This document shows, piece after piece, positions 24,725-34,612 of a DNA stretch of 64,000 bases. The notes beneath the pieces are model-generated. The model made no database searches, was not told the origin of the DNA, and saw only the letters and a program-made list of their open reading frames with translations. How positions within the stretch are numbered: position 1 is the stretch's first letter; each line of letters begins with the position of its first letter. Source of the stretch: Candidatus Poribacteria bacterium (GTDB lineage Bacteria; Poribacteria; WGA-4E; WGA-3G); NCBI GenBank assembly GCA_963663765.2, contig CAXXUA010000013.1, forward strand, positions 256,001 through 320,000. Direction: 5' to 3'. A program made the translations under genes and the position numbers.

Positions 24725-27700
24725 CTAACTCAACGTCTCTTCTATTTCATCAGTGGGTTCTGGAAGTTCTTCTGGTTCAGGATTCGGGATTGCATTGCTT
24801 GTAACCTCAAGTTCCCTCCATTCAGAGAAACCCGTTCCAGCAGGGATAAGTCGTCCAAGAATTACATTTTCCTTCAAACCTCTGAGTAGATCTGTTTGTC
24901 CTTCTACTGCTGCATCAGATAGTACTTTACGTGTTTCCTGGAAGCTGGCTGCTGAAATGAAACTCTCTGTACTGAGCGATGCTTTGCTAATGCTTTGTAA
25001 CACTGGTTTTCCTGTTGCCGGTTCACCCCCATCTTGTTCAATGCGTCTATTCTCTGCATGGAATCTGTGTCGTGGAACTTCATCATTAGCGAAGAATTCA
25101 GTATCACCTACAGACAGTATTTTTATCTTTTGCAACATCTGTCGCACTATTACTTCTACGTGTTTGTCGTTGATGGTATTGTTTCCGGGATAAACTGTTT
25201 GTACTTCATCAACGAGATAAGCCCAGACTGCTTCTTCACCCTCAATTGAATGTCCGTTGATGGTAGTTCTTCCGATTTCAAGGATATCGTGTGGGTTCAG
25301 GAAACCATCAGTAAGGGGTTGTCCAGCTTCAATCCAGTCTCCATCGTCTACACGCCTTTTTTCATCAGTAATAGAATAGAGTCTGCTTTTTGTTGCCCCA
25401 TCAACAATTCTGTATTGTGGCACACCTGCTTTTTGACCTGTGAGTTGGACATTCCCATCAATCTCTGCGATTTCTGCAGCGTCTTGCCGTTTAGGAGGAC
25501 GTGCTTCAAAGAGTCCTGTCACCCGTGGTATGCCTGCTACGATGTCAAGGTTAGTTGTTTTTTCGTGTAACTCTGCCAAAGCCTGCTGTGCCTTAACCTT
25601 TTCACCTTCTTTGAGTGTACCGGAATACCCGTTGGGAATCAAGTGAGATACTCTGGCACCGTTTGAGGTTACTATATCAATACGGAACCTTTCTTTTAGA
25701 TCATCAACTTCAACGCCTGGATACTGTTCATAAGCAGTGGCATATTCCCAATCTTTAAGCGTTTGTCCAACAGTCAGAGTGCAGTTTGGATGAATTATAT
25801 TGGTAACTTCATAAGTATTCTTTGATGTGGCTGCAGTTACTTTCTTATAGTCTGCATCACTTAGGAATTCATCAACTGTGAGTTCGGTTTCAGCATCATT
25901 AACCTTTGTTACCTTGAAGACGCGTTCTGTATCAAATCCTTTGTAAAGCCTCAATGCCCGTTTATACTCGGTTTCGTCTATACGTTCACCAACAGTAAGT
26001 TGACATTCGCTATGATGAACTGCCAGAATATGGTAATAAAGTTTGTATTCTGGCGGCGGCGTGTCAGTCTCACGATGTGTTTTTACCAATGCTTTGTATT
26101 CCGAGTCCATTAGTACTTCTTCAGAATCACTTTCTTCAGTTTCAGGTATATAGAGTTTTTCAAAGTCAAAACCTCTGTAGCTTCTTCGGAATTTGTTGGA
26201 TTCAGATTGTGTGATTCGTTCATCAACAGCAACGGGGAAATCTGGATGATGTATTGCCACGACTTGATACAATCTTTCAACTTCAAACGCTTCCTCGTTT
26301 TTTGCGACATTTACATCAAATCCTGGGTATTGCTTCATTAAAGCCTTTTTCTCAGTATCGGTAAGGAGGATTCCAGGTTCTAACTTACAGTCCGTATTGT
26401 GTATTGCTGTAATCCGATGTTTAAGTGGGTCTACCGTAACACCACTAAATTTCTCACGTAAAGTTTCTAAGTTTGCACTTTCAATGAGTTCCCCAGGTTT
26501 CAGTGGACAGTCAGGATGCGTAACTTTTGTAACTCGAAACTGTGGGTTTGATAGTTTCTGCACTTCAAATGACTTATTTTCTTCCTGCGTGCGGCGGACT
26601 TCTGCAACAGTTAGTTCTTGTCCCTTTTCAATATCAACATCATCATAGACTTCTTTTACGGTATAAACAGGGTCACCAAATTCAATGTGGTATTGACTTT
26701 CTTCTTCAGGAGTTAATAGATCACCTATACTATGTGGAAAGTCGGGATCACTTACAGTTTCGATTTTATACTTCATTTGTGCTTTTTCTTTATTATTTTT
26801 CTTTTGCAAGTATTCACTTTCGGTAAGGATGTCTCCCTTATTAGTTTGATAAACCCATTCACCGTCAAAGGGACGGATTTTAGCACGCCATTCTTCTGCT
26901 TTGCTTTCAGTCAAAAGTCTACCTGGTCTTAACGAGGTCTTTGGTTTTGATACACTGATGACGGGATAACGGGCTTCATTACAACGGAATAGTGCGTATT
27001 TCTGAGAATACACATGGTATTCTTGTTCCGTAAGGTACTGACCCACTATCAATGAAGCATCTTTATCAGAAGCTGCTTCAATAACATCCGGACGGTTAAT
27101 CTGTCTGACTTCGTAATAGACAGTTTCTACTTCAAAACCGGGATACCTTTCATTGTTTTCCTGCTTCTGTTTTTCTGTAAGGAGTTCTTCTGGTTGCAGT
27201 TTACATTCAGGATGTTGTACCGATCTGACCTTATATTTCGGTTGGTCTGGGTGTTCAGCGACTTGTTGTGCAATCCACAAACCACTTTCTTCACGAACGG
27301 TGCGGCCGGGTATATAGTCACGGAAGCGAACATTCCCCGATGCCTTTGCCAGAATTTTACGAGCAAGACGTTCACTCATATCTTCAACAACACCACCCGT
27401 GTGGAAAGTACGCATTGTCAACTGCGTGCCAGGTTCACCAATTGACTGTGCTGCAATAATTCCTATTGCTTCACCTACATTCACAAATTGCCCTGAAGTT
27501 AAATCTGAACCATAGCAGGTTGCACACGCACCTTTTTCTGCTTCACAAGTGAGAATGGACTTTACACGTACACTGGGTACATCTATATCTTCAATGTGTT
27601 GTGCCATCTGAGGTGTGATGATCGAATCAGTTTCTACTAATACTTCCTCTGTTTCAGGGTGAATTATTGGTTCGACCGCGACTCTACCACTAATCTTATG

Positions 27701-30337
27701 ATTAATGGTTCCTGAGTCCGTAGTGAATTTTAGGATACCATGTGTGGTGCCACAGTCTTCTTCAGTAATCATCACGTCTTGTGCTACATCTACGAGTTTA
27801 CGAGTTAAGTAACCAGAAGCAGCGGTTTTCATGGCGGTATCCACCAATCCCTTCCGAGAACCATAAGTAGATGTGAAGTAATCAAGAACATCTAAACCTT
27901 CACGATATGAAGATTGTATCGGTGAAGATAGAATTTCACCACTCTGTTTTGATTTCAATCCAACGATAGCACTGATTTGATTGAATGGGTTCTTGCGTGC
28001 GCGTGCACCACTGTCAGCCATTAGATGAACAGGACTAAATCCTTTTACTTCTTTTCCCTGTTCAACCAGTTGTGTTTCAGTTTCTGGCAACGCATCAAAA
28101 AGTGAATCCTGAATTTCAGAGACTGCATCATACCAGATCCGTATCTTTTCGTTCTCTAATTCTTCAAGCTCAAGATTTTCCTCTGTAGACAGGCGTTCAA
28201 TTTCAGAACTTGCTTTATTAAGGATTTCCATTTTATTATCAGGAATCAGGTAATCCCGAATACCAGGAGAAATCCCACTACGTGTCGCATATTCAAAACA
28301 CAGTGTCTGTAGACGATCTAACAGGGATACAGTTTCTGTAGTTCCCAGTTCATTAAAGCACCTTTTGACAAGTTCAGATAAACGTCTGCTACGTGCTTCT
28401 TCATTGAAGAACGGTATTTCAAGTCCAGTTGTTTCATCATTCCAAGTAAGTGATGAAGTTCCATTCGCTTTTGGAAGAACTTCATTGAAGATCACACGTC
28501 CGACAGTTGTCAATATAGGCTCGCGATGTCCTTTGAAATAGAGTATAACCGAATCGTGTAGTTTAAGAGTACCGCATCCATGAGCATGGGTAATCTCATC
28601 CACTGTTGCGTAGCGGCGCTTCGCCCATTCTTCCTTTTCTAATGATGAAAAGTTACCGTTAGATTTGGTTTCATCTGAGTTTTCTGAGTATGCTGCATTG
28701 AGTAATTCTGCGCGTTCAGTATGTTCTGGCAACGCTTTCGTTAAAAAACTTGCTCCCAAAATCATATCCAATTCTGGTACAGTAATGGGTTCTCCGTGTG
28801 AAGGTTTGAGGATATTTCCACTACTTAACAGTAACATCTTAGCTTCAGCGCGTGCCTCAATAGAGAGGGGGATGTGCACAGCCATCTGGTCACCATCAAA
28901 ATCTGCATTGAAAGCTTTACAGACAAGTGGTGGAATTCGTATAGATTTACCTTCAACAAGTACCGGCATAAATGCTTGGATGCCGAGTCTATGAAGTGTT
29001 GGCGGACGATTGAGCAATACCGGATGGTCAGCGATAACCTCTTCTAATGCTTCCCAGACCGGTGAATCCGGTGTGACGTGTTCAGTCATGTATTTTCCAC
29101 GTTTGATTGTCTGGACTTCACCTGCGGCTAATAATTTTTCTATTATAAATGGTTTGAAGAGTTCAACAGCCATCAATTTGGGAATTCCACATTGATGCAA
29201 TTCAAGTTCGGGTCCCACGACAATAACACTTCTACCGGAATAGTCAACCCGTTTACCAAGTAGGTTTTGACGGAATCGCCCAACTTTCCCTCGCAAAATG
29301 TCAGATAAGGATTTTAGGGCGCGTTTACCCGGTCCAGTAACTTGTCGACCATGTCGACCATTATCCAAAAATGCGTCTACTGATTCCTGAAGCATCCGTT
29401 TTTCATTTCGGAGGATGACTTCAGGGGAACGTAGGTCTATTAGTTTTTGCAGACGATTGTTCCGGTTTATCACGCGTCGATATAGATCGTTTAGGTCGCT
29501 TGTAGCAAATCTTCCACCTTCTAAAGAGACTAAGGGGCGGAGATCCGGACTGATAACGGGTAGGACATCAAGTATCATCCACTCTGGTTGCATCTGTGTT
29601 TTATTGAAACCTGCTACCATTCTCAATTTCTTAGAGAGTTTCATTTTTTTCTGACGACTGGAGGTTGCTTCAAGTTCTTCAGTGAGTTTTTCAACATCTT
29701 CAGAAAGAGTAGTCTTTTGTAGGAGTTCCTTAATTGCATCAGCACCAGTTCCTGCTCGGAACGAATCTGGGTGATCGCGCAATTTCTCCTCCATTTCGGA
29801 TTCAGTAAGTATATCTTTTTCAACCAATCCGCACTCCTCATTCATAACCTCAGTGACGATGAACGCTTCAAAATAGAGAATACGTTCTACGGCGCGTGAG
29901 GCAAGCTCAAGGAGGGTTCCTATTCGTGAAGGGATACCTTTAAAGAACCAAATGTGAGAGACAGGAGTAGCAAGTTTTATATAACCAAGCCGTTCACGTC
30001 GGACTTGTGATTTCGTAACCTCAACACCACATTGATCACAAATAAGTCCTTTGTGCTTAATTCGCTTGTATTTTCCACAACTACATTCAAAATCCTTTTG
30101 AGGTCCGAAAGTTGCTTCACAAAATAGACCTTGATGTTCAGGACGAAAACTTCTGTAGTTAATGGTTTCAGCTTTCTTGATTTCACCGCAATCGCAAGTA
30201 CCTTTTTCCGAGCACGACCATGTGTCATCAGCTGGATTCCTCCGTTTGCAAGAGGTGCGTTTCGCCCAATCTCTTATCGTTTCAGGAGATGCAATGCTGA
30301 TTGAAATACGATTAAATTGATTTTCTTTATCTGCCAT
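24725..30337 (-). CDS. rpoC: RNA polymerase beta' subunit with a very large trigger-loop insertion
   Basis: Zinc-finger cysteines, [51 protein letters not shown]; 1870 aa. Confidence 0.98.
25700..27238 (-). repeat. about 13 degenerate ~40-aa protein repeats inside RpoC
   Basis: Recurring Y-x-V-x2-(V/I)-x-HP-x-C-x-L-x2-G-x2-L-T-E-x-E-Y...Y-x-G-F pattern in the translation. Confidence 0.85.
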
Positions 30338-30446: not shown

Positions 30447-33400
30447 CTATTCAGAATCGTCGGTATTCCACGTCAATCTAAGAGGGGGTTCCTCTTCAAT
30501 CGGTTCCAGGGTATCTATCGTATGTAAGAGCGGGAAGCCTGCGTCAAGTAATGATGAATGCTCAGAATCAGCACCGTCACGATCACCTTCTGAGAGTTCT
30601 ACATTTAATCCCAGACTTTGCAGTTCTCTTACTAAGACATTGAAAGATTCTGGTGTCCCTGGTTTTAAGGGACTTTGTCCTTTCACAATTGATTCATAGA
30701 TTTTTGTTCTACCTTTTACGTCGTCGGACTTTATCGTCAACATCTCCTGAAGGGTGTGTGCTGCACCATACGCTTCCAATGCCCATACCTCCATTTCCCC
30801 GAGACGCTGTCCGCCATGTTGTGCTTTTCCACCAAGAGGTTGTTGCGTCACTAAGGAATAGGGACCTGTTGAACGTGCATGCATCTTATCTGCCACAAGA
30901 TGGTTTAACTTGAGGAAATATACATGACCGACAGTTACTTCCTGTCCGAACGGTTCACCAGTTCTACCATCAAAAAGGATGCTTTTACCAGTTTTCTTGA
31001 CGTTATCGGGTAAAACGGTTTTTGCTAACATTTCAAACACTTCTTCTTCTGTCGCACCGTCGAATACTGGTGATGACACATATAATCCGAGTTGGTGACA
31101 TGCTAATCCTAAGTGTATCTCAAGGATTTGACCAACGTTCATCCGAGAAGGTACACCAAGGGGATTTAAGACAATGTCTACGGGGGTACCATCAGGTAAA
31201 TAGGGCATGTCTTCCTCTGGTAATATTTTTGCAACAACACCTTTATTCCCATAACGTCCAGCCATTTTGTCACCGATAGATATTGGACGACGACTTGCTA
31301 CATAGACTTTTACAAGTTTTAATACTCCAGGCTTTAATTCTTCACCTGCTTCAAGTTTTTCCAAAGCCTCGTCTTTCTCCTCTGTATATGCATTGATTCT
31401 ACCAGATGCGAGTTCATGAAGACTCTTGATGTATGATGTAGCGTTAGTATCAGTAATCTGCAATGTTTCAAGTTCATTTTGTGAAAGAACATCCAGGTAT
31501 TCTCGCGTCAACACATCACCTGTTTGCAGCTGCCTAACTGATGCCGTGTTATCTTTTGCATCATCTTTATCATCAGTATCAAAAGTTGTTGGATACGCAA
31601 GTTCTTTGTTAGTTAAGGTTTCACGTAATTCTTCAACTAAACGTTCGGTGACCTGATCACACTGTTCTTTCCACGTTTGCTCAATTTGTTTGCGTAATGC
31701 TTCTTGCCGCCATGCAGTTTTCTCACTGTTTGGTGAAGTATGACGTGAGAAGACTTTAACATCAATAACAACACCTTCCACACCTGGTCGTGTGTATGCT
31801 GATGCGTCTTTTACCTCTTTGACTTTTTCACCGAAAATTGCACGAAGCAGTTTTTCTTCAGGACCATATTCACTTTCACCTTTTGGCGAAATTTTTCCAA
31901 CGAGGATGCTACCAGTACCTACGACACTCCCAACACGAATGATCCCCTCATCGTCAAGTTGGGCAAGACTACGTGCAGACATGTTTGGAATATCCCGGGT
32001 AATTTCTTCATCACCCATCTTCGTTTGTCTGGCGGCAACTTCAAACTCTTCTATATGGATTGAGGTGAATGTGTCGTCTTTGATAAGGGATTCACTTATC
32101 AGGATTGAGTCTTCAAAATTATGTCCACCCCAAGGCATATATGCACAAAGGATATTTCTACCAAGTGCTAATTCACCACCTTCAGTAGCAGTACCATCCG
32201 CAATAACATCCCCAGCTTCCACAACATCACCGATATTCACACGGGGACGTTGATGTATACATGTACCACTATTGCTCCGTTTGAAGTTCTTAAGTTTATA
32301 TACATCGTATCCCATTTCACTAAAGCCATGTTCACCCTCTTCCAAATGCAGTGCTTGACCAGTTCGGATAAGCACCTCTTCCGCATCAACACTGGAAACA
32401 ACACCACCACGGTGTGCAACGACCATTGCATTTGCATCCCGCGCTGCCCGGTGTTCCATACCTGTACCGACCCAAGGCGCTTCTGGACAGATTAAGGGAA
32501 CTGCTTGTCGTTGGTGGTTAGCACCCATAAGCGCGCGGTTTGCATCCTCATGTTCCAAAAAAGGAACAAGTGCAGCTGAGACACCGACAATCTGTTGTGG
32601 CGCTATTCCAATGTAGTCTATATCTTCGAGATCACACTCAATGATCTCCTCACCCTTTCTACTCCGAAGCGTGGATAATTTATTCCTGGGAGAAATAGCA
32701 TCTGCAGGTGCGATGTGATATCTGTCTTCTGCATCTGCTGTTAGAAACTCAACATCTTTAGTTATTTTACCTTTGCGAACTGCACGATATGGAGTTTCTA
32801 AGAACCCATAAGGATTTACCCTTGCAAAAGTTGCTAATGAGACTATGAGACCAATAGACGGTCCTTCAGGCGTTTCCAATGGACAGACTCGACCATAGTG
32901 TGTACGGTGCACATCACGTACAGCTGCAGTAGCACGATCACGGTGCAATCCACCTGGTCCAATCGCGGAAATCCTACGTTTGTGTGTAAGTTCGTCTAAA
33001 GGATTTATCTGCTGCATAAATTGGGAAAGTTGGTTTGAACCGAAAAACTCTCGAAGTGAACTCATCAAAGGTTTCGGATTCACCAAATTCTTGGGGTTTT
33101 TCAGTTGCGCATCCGAAGTGGAACTCAATTTTTCACGTGCTGCGCGACGTATCTGCAGTAGAGCAATTCTGAATTGATTCTCAAGAAGCTCTCCGATGAC
33201 ACGTACACGACGGTTACCAAGATGGTCAAGATCATCTACCAATCTAAGTCCATTGCGTATGTCCATTAGGTGTTGTAAGGTTGCTGCAATGTCTTTGGGA
33301 CGCAGCACACGAATGTCTTCTTTTGGTATTTCTCCAGATTCATCAGGATACACAGTAGAATCACTGAGTTGTGAATTCAGTTTGTATCTACCCACGGTGC

Positions 33401-34472
33401 CTAAATCATAACGTGCCCCATCAAAAAAGAGACGTTCTAAACATGTAGAAGCAGATTCACGTGTGGGGGCATCACCCGGACGAAGCGTCCTAAATATCTC
33501 AAGCAGTGCACCTTCTTGTAATGTACCCCCTGCATAAGCTTTTACAGTGTCCCGAGAAAGAGTGTTTCGTAGATATCTCAATTCTTGTTCGTCTGTTTCT
33601 ACTAATACTTCAATCTTTTGTACTTTTGCTTCTGTCAGTCTGTCAAATTCTAATTCTGACAACTTCGTATTTGATTCAAGGAGTACCTCGCCAGTTTCTT
33701 TGTCTATAACAGGATCAACGATAATACGACCAATTACATCTGGAGACAGTTTCACCTCTTCAGAACTACTGAACAATCTTAGTATATCTGCGTCAGTTTC
33801 CCAACCGAGAGCCCGTAAGAGAACTGTTGCTAATATTTTCTTTTTACGATCCAATCGCACGTGAATACAGTCCTTTGAATCAAATTCAAACTCTATCCAA
33901 GCACCACGGTATGGAATAATTTGACCTGTTGGTAATTTCTGAACACTTGTTGCACTTGATTTATCAAGGAATATCACACCAGGTGATCGTTGTAACTGAT
34001 TAACAATAACACGTTCCGAACCGTTTATGATAAAAGTGCCATTTTCAGTCATCAGTGGGATATCACCCAGATAGACTTCGGATTCGGTAATGTCAAGAAC
34101 ACGTGTTTGTCCTGTGTCTTCATCTTTTTCACGTTCAACACACATCAGACGTGCTTGTAATCTTACTTGATAGTTCAACCCACGTGCCTGACAATCCATT
34201 AGGTCGTGTGTTGGAGGACTCAAAGTATAACTGACAAATTCAAGACTTGTTGTCTCTTTGAAATCATATATCGGAAAAACTTCTTTGAACAGTGCTTGCA
34301 GCCCAACTGACGCGCGTTCGTTTTCTGGAACATTACGTTGTATAAATGCGGCATAAGAACGTTTCTGAGTTTCAATAAGATTGGGCAGGTCAATTACCGA
34401 AGGGGTTTTAGAAAAGGAGACGCGCTGACGTAACGCTGCAGGTCTTCCATTCGTTGTTTTATTTTTAGGCAT
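30447..34472 (-). CDS. rpoB: RNA polymerase beta subunit
   Basis: GTFIINGSERV, ETPEGP, GDKMAGRYGNKG, GGQRLGEMEVWALEAYGA; ATG 34472 after AAGGTGG preferred over 34517. Confidence 0.98.
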   Translation of the reverse strand: MPKNKTTNGRPAALRQRVSFSKTPSVIDLPNLIETQKRSYAAFIQRNVPENERASVGLQALFKEVFPIYDFKETTSLEFVSYTLSPPTHDLMDCQARGLNYQVRLQARLMCVEREKDEDTGQTRVLDITESEVYLGDIPLMTENGTFIINGSERVIVNQLQRSPGVIFLDKSSATSVQKLPTGQIIPYRGAWIEFEFDSKDCIHVRLDRKKKILATVLLRALGWETDADILRLFSSSEEVKLSPDVIGRIIVDPVIDKETGEVLLESNTKLSELEFDRLTEAKVQKIEVLVETDEQELRYLRNTLSRDTVKAYAGGTLQEGALLEIFRTLRPGDAPTRESASTCLERLFFDGARYDLGTVGRYKLNSQLSDSTVYPDESGEIPKEDIRVLRPKDIAATLQHLMDIRNGLRLVDDLDHLGNRRVRVIGELLENQFRIALLQIRRAAREKLSSTSDAQLKNPKNLVNPKPLMSSLREFFGSNQLSQFMQQINPLDELTHKRRISAIGPGGLHRDRATAAVRDVHRTHYGRVCPLETPEGPSIGLIVSLATFARVNPYGFLETPYRAVRKGKITKDVEFLTADAEDRYHIAPADAISPRNKLSTLRSRKGEEIIECDLEDIDYIGIAPQQIVGVSAALVPFLEHEDANRALMGANHQRQAVPLICPEAPWVGTGMEHRAARDANAMVVAHRGGVVSSVDAEEVLIRTGQALHLEEGEHGFSEMGYDVYKLKNFKRSNSGTCIHQRPRVNIGDVVEAGDVIADGTATEGGELALGRNILCAYMPWGGHNFEDSILISESLIKDDTFTSIHIEEFEVAARQTKMGDEEITRDIPNMSARSLAQLDDEGIIRVGSVVGTGSILVGKISPKGESEYGPEEKLLRAIFGEKVKEVKDASAYTRPGVEGVVIDVKVFSRHTSPNSEKTAWRQEALRKQIEQTWKEQCDQVTERLVEELRETLTNKELAYPTTFDTDDKDDAKDNTASVRQLQTGDVLTREYLDVLSQNELETLQITDTNATSYIKSLHELASGRINAYTEEKDEALEKLEAGEELKPGVLKLVKVYVASRRPISIGDKMAGRYGNKGVVAKILPEEDMPYLPDGTPVDIVLNPLGVPSRMNVGQILEIHLGLACHQLGLYVSSPVFDGATEEEVFEMLAKTVLPDNVKKTGKSILFDGRTGEPFGQEVTVGHVYFLKLNHLVADKMHARSTGPYSLVTQQPLGGKAQHGGQRLGEMEVWALEAYGAAHTLQEMLTIKSDDVKGRTKIYESIVKGQSPLKPGTPESFNVLVRELQSLGLNVELSEGDRDGADSEHSSLLDAGFPLLHTIDTLEPIEEEPPLRLTWNTDDSE

Positions 34473-34612
34473 AGATTTCCACCTTGCTCGGTTTGTAGAC
34501 GGTTTGAAGTTTCGCACGCTTATACTTTATTATTCGACAAGTTGATGATTCTCTTTATTAGCAAATAGTTAAGTAAAGGTTCTCGTTGTAAAAGAAATTC
34601 ACTTATTATGAT

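Follow-up and report, generated by a model that had tools for sequence, protein, structure and literature searches.

What does an RNA polymerase (RNAP) carry when the trigger loop of its beta' subunit is interrupted by several hundred extra residues, and where did this additional protein come from? The question is raised by rpoC, the beta' gene, in a 64,000-nucleotide stretch of a Candidatus Poribacteria genome (assembly GCA_963663765.2, contig CAXXUA010000013.1, positions 256,001 to 320,000), which in its whole length we call the window. The original prediction placed 615 extra residues between the motifs TMRTFHTGG and DIVAGIPRV, at 25547-27391, and translation reproduces these coordinates exactly. 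Our analysis suggests that this is likely to be a composite insertion at the site of E. coli SI3, in which a single SBHM domain holds, within one of its loops, an array of 13 modules of the sLC type derived from the bD2 segment of beta', the whole serving as an SI3-like regulatory appendage. The architecture and the origin are the firmest parts of this reading and we regard them as very probable, whereas the function, which is read by analogy with SI3, is put forward tentatively, as something close to an even call at best. The features on which the argument depends are the following.

24725..30337, minus strand: rpoC, RNA polymerase beta' subunit, an open reading frame (ORF) of 1870 aa with Pfam Rpb1 domains 1-5
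27392..27418, minus strand: TMRTFHTGG (aa 974-982), the motif of the N-terminal trigger-loop helix, in which the catalytic Met, Arg and His are all retained; it aligns with the trigger loops of solved RNAPs
25520..25546, minus strand: trigger-loop C-terminal helix motif DIVAGIPRV (aa 1598-1606)
25547..27391, minus strand: whole trigger-loop insertion (aa 983-1597), 615 aa, 71.2 kDa, isoelectric point (pI) 5.27
27239..27391, minus strand: N-edge of the insertion (aa 983-1033), a short linker and helix, then the first half of an SBHM
25694..27238, minus strand: array of 13 sLC-like units (aa 1034-1548), 515 aa, 60.0 kDa, pI 5.10
25547..25693, minus strand: C-edge of the insertion (aa 1549-1597), the second half of the same SBHM

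In alignments, both flanks of the insertion fall on the trigger loop of beta' in solved RNAPs, and the position of the insertion is that of E. coli SI3. The reading frame of rpoC is free of stops, with Pfam Rpb1 domain 5 spread across residues 814-1746, and the gene is the one match in a 6.35-Mb genome of 15 contigs that is 97.8% complete, and is therefore present as a single copy.

The interior of the insertion is built of repeats that are visible at the level of protein. When 305 overlapping 44-aa sliding segments were each searched by phmmer against the whole of RpoC, 58 had a non-self match at an independent E-value (i-E) below 0.01 (best 9e-09), and the targets were confined to aa 1031-1551 and 161-190, with the rest of the 1255-aa core unmatched; a BLASTP self-comparison of RpoC returned the identity match only. 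A hidden Markov model (HMM) seeded with six units recovers the remaining ones, with 11 units at E<1e-3 and units 4 and 10 degenerate. An AlphaFold2 model of residues 955-1625 (the whole-insert model; 32-sequence alignment, mean predicted local distance difference test (pLDDT) score 78.6) contains 13 successive strand-loop-short strand-helix-strand units of ~40 aa each. HMM and model between them bear out the earlier count of about 13 degenerate units of about 40 aa, and the computed mass of the array agrees with the ~60-kDa appendage that had been proposed. No repeats were found within the array at the DNA level, and the duplications must therefore be old. The units are delimited as follows.

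27116..27238, minus strand: unit 1 (aa 1034-1074), from HMM and model
26972..27115, minus strand: unit 2 (aa 1075-1122), with an extra short helix, from HMM and model
26849..26971, minus strand: unit 3 (aa 1123-1163), from HMM and model
26774..26848, minus strand: unit 4 (aa 1164-1188), truncated and degenerate, a weak HMM match with a helix in the model
26663..26773, minus strand: unit 5 (aa 1189-1225), from HMM and model
26543..26662, minus strand: unit 6 (aa 1226-1265), from HMM and model
26423..26542, minus strand: unit 7 (aa 1266-1305), from HMM and three-unit model
26300..26422, minus strand: unit 8 (aa 1306-1346), from HMM and three-unit model
26150..26299, minus strand: unit 9 (aa 1347-1396), from HMM and three-unit model
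26039..26149, minus strand: unit 10 (aa 1397-1433), degenerate and acidic, a weak HMM match with a helix in the model
25919..26038, minus strand: unit 11 (aa 1434-1473), from HMM and model
25817..25918, minus strand: unit 12 (aa 1474-1507), short, from HMM and model
25694..25816, minus strand: unit 13 (aa 1508-1548), from HMM and model

In units 1, 7, 8, 9, 11 and 13, the loop that follows the first strand bears a His-Pro-x-Cys (or His-His) motif, which varies little or not at all across 32 sequences. The Cys of this motif is also kept in the N-terminal bD2 segment of the order (29753..29863 in the window).

The fold of the unit points to the polymerase itself. A three-unit model, for which aa 1262-1398 were modelled alone (pLDDT 83.1), was compared by VIA-align with 48,161 representative PDB chains, and ranks 1, 2, 3 and 5 are beta' chains, the matches including M. 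tuberculosis beta' 6edt_D 1163-1207 (Z 5.4, root-mean-square deviation (rmsd) 1.3 Å over 40 residues), cyanobacterial beta' 1132-1179 (Z 5.2), the beta'MtbSI crystal fragment 5uh7_B (Z 4.8) and residues 1230-1271 of tobacco plastid-encoded polymerase (PEP; Z 3.9). In a second VIA-align comparison over 888 Foldseek candidates, the top 46 rows listed are all bacterial beta', matched at bD7 or bD2 with Z 3.4-5.6, and the rows that follow have Z of at most 2.8. The bD7 matches include Thermus 1377-1421 (Z 5.6), E. coli 1259-1306 and B. subtilis 1073-1120, and the unit superposes on bD7 of Thermus, Mycobacterium, Bacillus, E. coli and cyanobacteria with an rmsd of 1.3-1.8 Å over 39-43 residues. The bD2 matches include B. 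subtilis 130-172 (Z 4.7) and E. coli 140-182 (Z 3.4), the latter lying where the original prediction had expected a clamp match, near E. coli residues 143-180. In the text and Table 2 of Alvarez-Carreno et al. 2024 (PMC11515920), bD2 and bD7 are treated as homologous "sLC" domains (CATH 3.30.60.280), with bD2 at 139-177 / 142-181 and bD7 at 1060-1103 / 1255-1298. On these models, the units are predicted to adopt the sLC fold of beta'-bD2 and bD7, and the weight of the match lies in its exclusivity to beta' rather than in the absolute Z. The sLC domain is probably the beta-beta' module of older work.

The sequences of the units indicate which of the two segments is the closer relative. From 74 homologues, 473 non-redundant trigger-loop units were collected, N-terminal matches being left out, and their profile was aligned by hhalign with that of the insert-free protein (1262 columns). 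The one match was to the bD2 segment (Prob 94.4%, P 9e-8), and the alignment ranked second has P 0.11. An HMM of the window's own units matches the bD2 of sister families at i-E 2.8e-13, 3.4e-11 and 3.5e-10, and these bD2 segments and the unit consensus have in common a "..V.DPDC.L.VKQLLTEEEY" pattern that is typical of the lineage. Against all PDB sequences, the unit profile ranks B. subtilis beta' 136-163 first (E 0.039), and three more distinct beta' chains from other species match at the same place (E 0.18-1.2); no sequence signal from the units to bD7 was found. Among the 14,207 six-frame ORFs of at least 80 aa in the genome, RpoC is the only convincing match of the unit HMM. A 229-aa ORF with a full-sequence E of 0.0024 was dismissed, as it consists of six repetitive weak stretches, each with i-E>100. 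The segment concerned is the following.

29753..29863, minus strand: N-terminal sLC module (beta'-bD2; aa 159-195), a putative paralogue of the repeats and the sole non-insert match of the unit scans

Its position agrees with the bD2 boundaries 139-177 / 142-181 in Table 2 of PMC11515920. The likeness of the repeats to the protein's own N-terminal segment, which the original prediction had noticed, is thereby placed at a segment starting at aa 159 and backed by the profile alignment. Taken together, the hhalign, HMM and PDB sequence matches to bD2 support the amplification of a clamp-derived module, and by their sequences the units are probably paralogues of the lineage's own bD2 segment, with descent running, as we infer, from bD2 to the array. 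The earlier claim that such a module had been amplified into an architecture other than an SBHM array agrees with the bD2/bD7 fold of the units, their similarity to bD2 in sequence and an interior without SBHM.

An SBHM is found only at the edges of the insertion. The whole-insert model was compared structurally (VIA-align) with the same 48,161 chains, and its matches include E. coli SI3 (4iqz_A: Z 12.0, rmsd 2.6 Å over 87 residues, at chain residues 110-216, on the second SBHM of E. coli SI3; 2auk_A: Z 11.2) and the Synechococcus SI3-tail (8h02_A: Z 9.3), these three aligning over model residues 34..639 with just 74-88 residues aligned. Rank 4 is tobacco PEP beta'' (8w9z_c), followed by cytochrome f, NusG domain II, biotinyl domains and more RNAP chains; the cytochrome f, NusG domain II and biotinyl matches are barrel-sandwich hybrids. 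As the SBHM matches span the model from ~34 to ~640 with 56-88 aligned residues, the N-edge and the C-edge would pack as a single SBHM. In phmmer searches, the C-edge with the C-terminal trigger helix matches the SI3 end of solved beta' (7ye1_D 1083-1156, E 1.6e-8; E. coli 1099-1165, E 1.1e-4); the C-edge also has a weak Pfam match to Apocytochr_F_C, and Foldseek gives the small domain of cytochrome f. The N-edge aligns with the first half of the second SBHM in sister-family proteins and ends at a common "...DQP" (scores 55 and 65 against shuffle maxima of 44 and 49), and in one of these proteins (L003) the C-edge alignment starts at the residues right after the N-edge stop (score 43, ~4 standard deviations above the shuffle mean). 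Since the two alignments adjoin in the sister second SBHM, the array would sit in one loop of that domain. The proposal that the edges are two halves of a single SBHM, as in E. coli SI3, is upheld by the structural superposition on 4iqz_A and by the phmmer matches of the C-edge.

Relatives of the window's genome offer a view of how this arrangement could have arisen. RpoC from other families of the same order is 1411-1445 aa long, and in three sister-family proteins (L012, L002 and L003) the trigger-loop insert is 193-212 aa and consists of two tandem SBHMs with no units; the first SBHM (~100 aa) of the sister SI3 has no counterpart in the window's RpoC. In a protein from a fourth family (L011, genome G052), the insert of 369 aa combines two SBHMs with a Lys/Glu-rich, internally repeated segment of ~175 aa in the very loop that hosts the array, and this loop looks like an insertion hot spot. 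The ancestor of the one Poribacteria-like family carrying the array would have had a two-SBHM SI3, of which the first SBHM would then have been lost; a bD2 copy would have been gained in the loop of the second and amplified to 13, and the array would then have been fixed in length and order under purifying selection.

An insert query matches 79 of the 81 sampled genomes of the window's family, which span five genera (the two without a match are 90% and 81% complete); seven further families of the phylum sample, with 39 genomes between them, gave no match. Of 79 RpoC proteins in which both flanks were found, 78 have an insert of 613-655 aa and one has 966 aa, and the most divergent clade retains a collinear array at 35-37% insert identity. 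The exception in length is an RpoC of 2210 aa (P0083), in whose 966-aa insert at least 13 units are detectable. Measured against two relatives in turn, the ratio of nonsynonymous to synonymous substitution rates (dN/dS) is 0.119 and 0.133 for the array (514 codons), 0.058 and 0.075 for the SBHM edges, and 0.043 and 0.044 for the core. Units 1, 9, 11 and 13 are the best conserved, including their His/Pro/Cys positions. Only 32 of 1.84 billion representative proteins match the unit profile at E<=1e-3, and where Pfam or flank motifs identify them, they prove to be RpoC, RpoB from related genera, or one of two TPR proteins; the Pfam scan covered seven of the 32, and several short ones among the rest are probably fragments. 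Three lower-ranked matches of the profile (P0102, P0103 and P0113) are, by Pfam, unrelated repetitive surface proteins. The named homologues of the window's RpoC are labelled Candidatus Poribacteria, and rpoC DNA turns up in sponge metagenome runs.

What might such an appendage do? SI3 modulates pausing and trigger-loop folding; in cyanobacteria it swings as the catalytic cycle proceeds and builds an arch together with sigma (PMC11077087, PMC4227799, PMC10895346, PMC10120043). In the window's RpoC, the array starts and ends in the same SBHM loop and must therefore project as a closed, folded-back appendage, and as the SBHM hangs from both trigger helices, folding of the trigger loop must set all 71 kDa in motion. 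The array would thus move with each cycle of trigger-loop folding and unfolding, as E. coli and cyanobacterial SI3 do, and would couple this folding to surface contacts with the jaw, the lobe, sigma or a lineage-specific factor. In this way it would adjust the speed of elongation, pausing and how accessible the secondary channel is, and perhaps initiation.

Several points weigh against this reading, some on its structural and evolutionary side and others on its functional side. The structural Z of single units is modest, up to 5.6, because the module has only ~40 residues; Foldseek against the PDB gives nothing at E<=1e-3 for the whole insert or for three units; and the overall shape of the array is unreliable in the whole-insert model (predicted template modelling score 0.46). 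The ESM Atlas likewise had no usable match for the array. The unit HMM built from this single genome matches the window's own bD2 weakly (i-E 0.0065 at Z=1) and does not report it at the scale of the genome-wide ORF set. The score of 43 between the C-edge and the sister protein is below the shuffle maximum of 51, and the loss of the first SBHM is arrived at by parsimony. As for function, the mechanism is an analogy only, the dN/dS of the array is ~3x that of the core, so that part of the array may be loosely constrained, and units 2, 4, 6, 10 and 12 are the least conserved. Finally, as Gre is missing across the phylum sample and not just where the array occurs, the link between a giant SI3 and the lack of Gre that is seen in cyanobacteria does not discriminate here.

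The Gre factors were considered because of that link. Neither the window's genome (97.8% complete) nor 116 of the 121 genomes of the phylum sample, array-less families included, yielded GreA/GreB domains (PF01272, PF03449), and the five matches are marginal and fall in ORFs of 1307-1455 aa. An association between the array and Gre loss was therefore rejected.

The same module occurs at other sites of the polymerase in related genomes, and these occurrences bear on how freely it travels. In six RpoC proteins from the window's genus (P0003-P0007 and P0029, 2241-2426 aa), a second large in-frame insertion follows the equivalent of ~aa 893, and ORFs of 2231-2511 aa in G005, G019, G021, G044, G064 and G076 are likewise long RpoC with this insertion. 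It contains short "HYKVT" repeats and as many as five further repeats of ~60 aa that include the array unit, besides a PD-(D/E)XK-type nuclease-like domain (Pfam MTES_1575, E 2e-21; DUF559); the window's RpoC is without this insertion. Three further long RpoC (P0041, P0046 and P0056) have insertions of ~330-430 aa after the equivalent of ~aa 696-722, and two from the divergent clade (P0072 and P0078) have an extra unit copy inside the N-terminal bD2 segment, after aa 159-171. In sister genera, RpoB proteins of 1540 and 1519 aa (P0081 and P0087) carry five to six tandem units at aa 234-420 (i-E 1e-9 to 1e-12), which split the Rpb2_2 lobe domain at the beta-i4 position. Secondary matches of the insert query lie ~8 kb from rpoC in genera g2-g5. 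Two proteins that are not RNAP subunits (P0094 and P0095, 837 and 938 aa) have a restriction-endonuclease-like N-terminal region (weak HSDR_N_2) and C-terminal TPRs, with two to three units in the ~60-aa repeat form, and so pair nuclease and unit as the long RpoC do.

The presence of nuclease and module together in free-standing proteins suggests a nuclease-associated, in-frame mobile cassette. A broader reading would then be that the bD2 (sLC) module is a proliferating block, carried by such a cassette, that has colonised the trigger loop (13 copies, with more in the relative whose insert has 966 aa), the beta lobe (5-6 copies, in sister genera), bD2 and the ~893 site, and that the array is a convergent second giant SI3 that gates catalysis or forms a bridge to sigma or DNA, as the cyanobacterial arch does. 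We consider this a rather unlikely account of the window's array.

The main rival to an SI3-like regulatory appendage is that the array is a tolerated passenger, a small and robust module duplicated at a permissive loop and kept since its removal would disturb the trigger loop. That the loop is permissive is suggested by the Lys/Glu-rich ~175-aa insert of L011 in the same place, and the spread of the module to other RNAP sites in related genomes, the ~3x faster evolution of the array than of the core and the degeneracy of several units all fit this view. Set against it, a dN/dS of 0.12-0.13 over 514 codons amounts to clear purifying selection, length and unit order have been kept between clades at 35-37% insert identity, and units 1, 9, 11 and 13 are strongly conserved together with their His/Pro/Cys positions; moreover, a 60-kDa mass on a mobile catalytic loop would hardly be kinetically neutral. 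On balance, we find a mere passenger improbable.

Two other explanations fare far worse. An array of ordinary SBHM (HABAS) domains of the cyanobacterial SI3 type, with a coincidental likeness to the clamp, would fit the site and total size of the insertion and the weak Foldseek ranking of the whole model, in which cyanobacterial RNAP comes first (E 7.6e-3), but is contradicted by units of ~40 aa and a single helix, less than an SBHM requires, by a three-unit model that matches only beta' bD7 and bD2 and no SBHM, by whole-model SBHM matches that use the two edges only and by the profile match to bD2 (P 9e-8), and is hardly credible.

An in-frame insert of such a size, in a gene that is essential and a genome that was derived from a metagenome, also calls to mind a misassembly or chimera, or an intein-like element removed from the mature protein, all the more as some related rpoC genes carry a nuclease-like domain elsewhere. 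Misassembly, which the original prediction had singled out for checking, is contradicted by Logan contigs from three studies, which hold a 2401-bp test stretch in one piece with no indels, two of them with 0 differences (one is perhaps the source sample) and the third, a 2016 sponge metagenome, with 17 substitutions. The insert is present in 79 of 81 family genomes, many of which are single-contig, 78 other RpoC with both flanks have an insert of the same kind, and there are no DNA repeats able to mislead an assembler. No Hint, intein or endonuclease domain was found in the window's RpoC (Pfam, E<=1), and the flanking trigger-loop residues are without intein splice-junction features, so that an artefact or a spliced element is extremely improbable. 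In run X4, two short contigs match only the trigger-loop flank (27392-27428) and diverge exactly at the insert border; these presumably stem from the rpoC genes of other organisms present in that sample. In one metatranscriptome, RNA contigs reach only 9 of 30 bins, and four short RNA-library contigs on the array are compatible with transcription but no proof of it.

Immediately upstream of rpoC lies the gene of the other large subunit, in which neither the unit HMM nor the unit profile found array units.

30447..34517, minus strand: rpoB, an ORF of 1356 aa

A composite, SI3-site insertion built largely from a copied clamp segment would matter in several ways. Trigger-loop insertions directly shape catalysis, pausing and regulation, and the sole giant one studied is the SBHM-built SI3 of cyanobacteria. 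The insertion described here could provide a second model, of equal or greater mass and separate origin, with which to ask what counts, the appendage's mass and geometry or its type of domain. The series of relatives, from a two-SBHM SI3 to one SBHM with an array, would illustrate how an enzyme can build a new domain by multiplying copies of one of its conserved segments at a different place in the chain. In practice, the array is a family-level marker for sponge-associated bacteria, and a caveat for RpoC-based alignments and automated annotation.

How does this architecture compare with known systems? E. coli SI3 (also beta'i6 or the beta' G/G' insert; 2AUK, 4IQZ) has the same insertion point, and the base SBHM superposes on its second SBHM; it comprises 188 aa and two SBHMs (10.1101/2021.01.27.428476), whereas here 515 of 615 aa form an array of another module nested in a single SBHM. 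SI3 is defined by composition as all SBHM, with 2-5 in most lineages and 9 in cyanobacteria, and the insertion has one. The cyanobacterial and plastid SI3, with its nine SBHM/HABAS domains, is likewise a giant trigger-loop appendage formed by recursive insertion of domain into domain, and is described in PMC10120043 as "the largest by far SI3 (~65 kDa)"; the present insert is 71.2 kDa, and that of one relative has 966 aa. It differs from the cyanobacterial one in that its modules are ~40 aa and sLC-like rather than SBHMs, in its apparently independent origin in one Poribacteria-like family and in an unsplit beta'. With sLC bD2 and bD7 (PMC11515920) the units have the predicted fold in common, with significant sequence similarity for bD2. 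The text of that paper reports rare sLC inserts, specific to certain lineages, from four other places in beta', gives trigger-loop (uD5) inserts as HABAS only, and, Table S4 aside, mentions neither a 13-copy trigger-loop array nor Poribacteria.

The BBM2 and BEAN inserts (CATH 3.90.105.10), found in the beta lobe as E. coli beta-i4 and Firmicutes beta-i5, are likewise small, RNAP-specific tandem modules, E. coli beta-i4 being predicted to have one to six BBM2 repeats (Opalka 2010, PMC2939025). Units of the array type fill the RpoB lobe insertion in sister genera (P0081 and P0087), and no match of the units to E. coli beta-i4 or to solved beta lobe modules was present among the structural matches listed or the PDB sequence matches. 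The original prediction knew of no description of such an insertion; our literature search, which did not include Iyer 2004, Lane & Darst 2010 or Table S4 of PMC11515920, all of which may list relatives, found none of the 13-fold array either, while the module itself turns out to be already named, as sLC. The new part is therefore the 13-fold tandem sLC array nested in a trigger-loop SBHM. The non-conserved domain of Thermus beta' and the SI of Mycobacterium beta' are likewise lineage-specific elaborations that involve bD2; in those proteins bD2 hosts the insertion, whereas here copies of bD2 appear to be the material inserted elsewhere.

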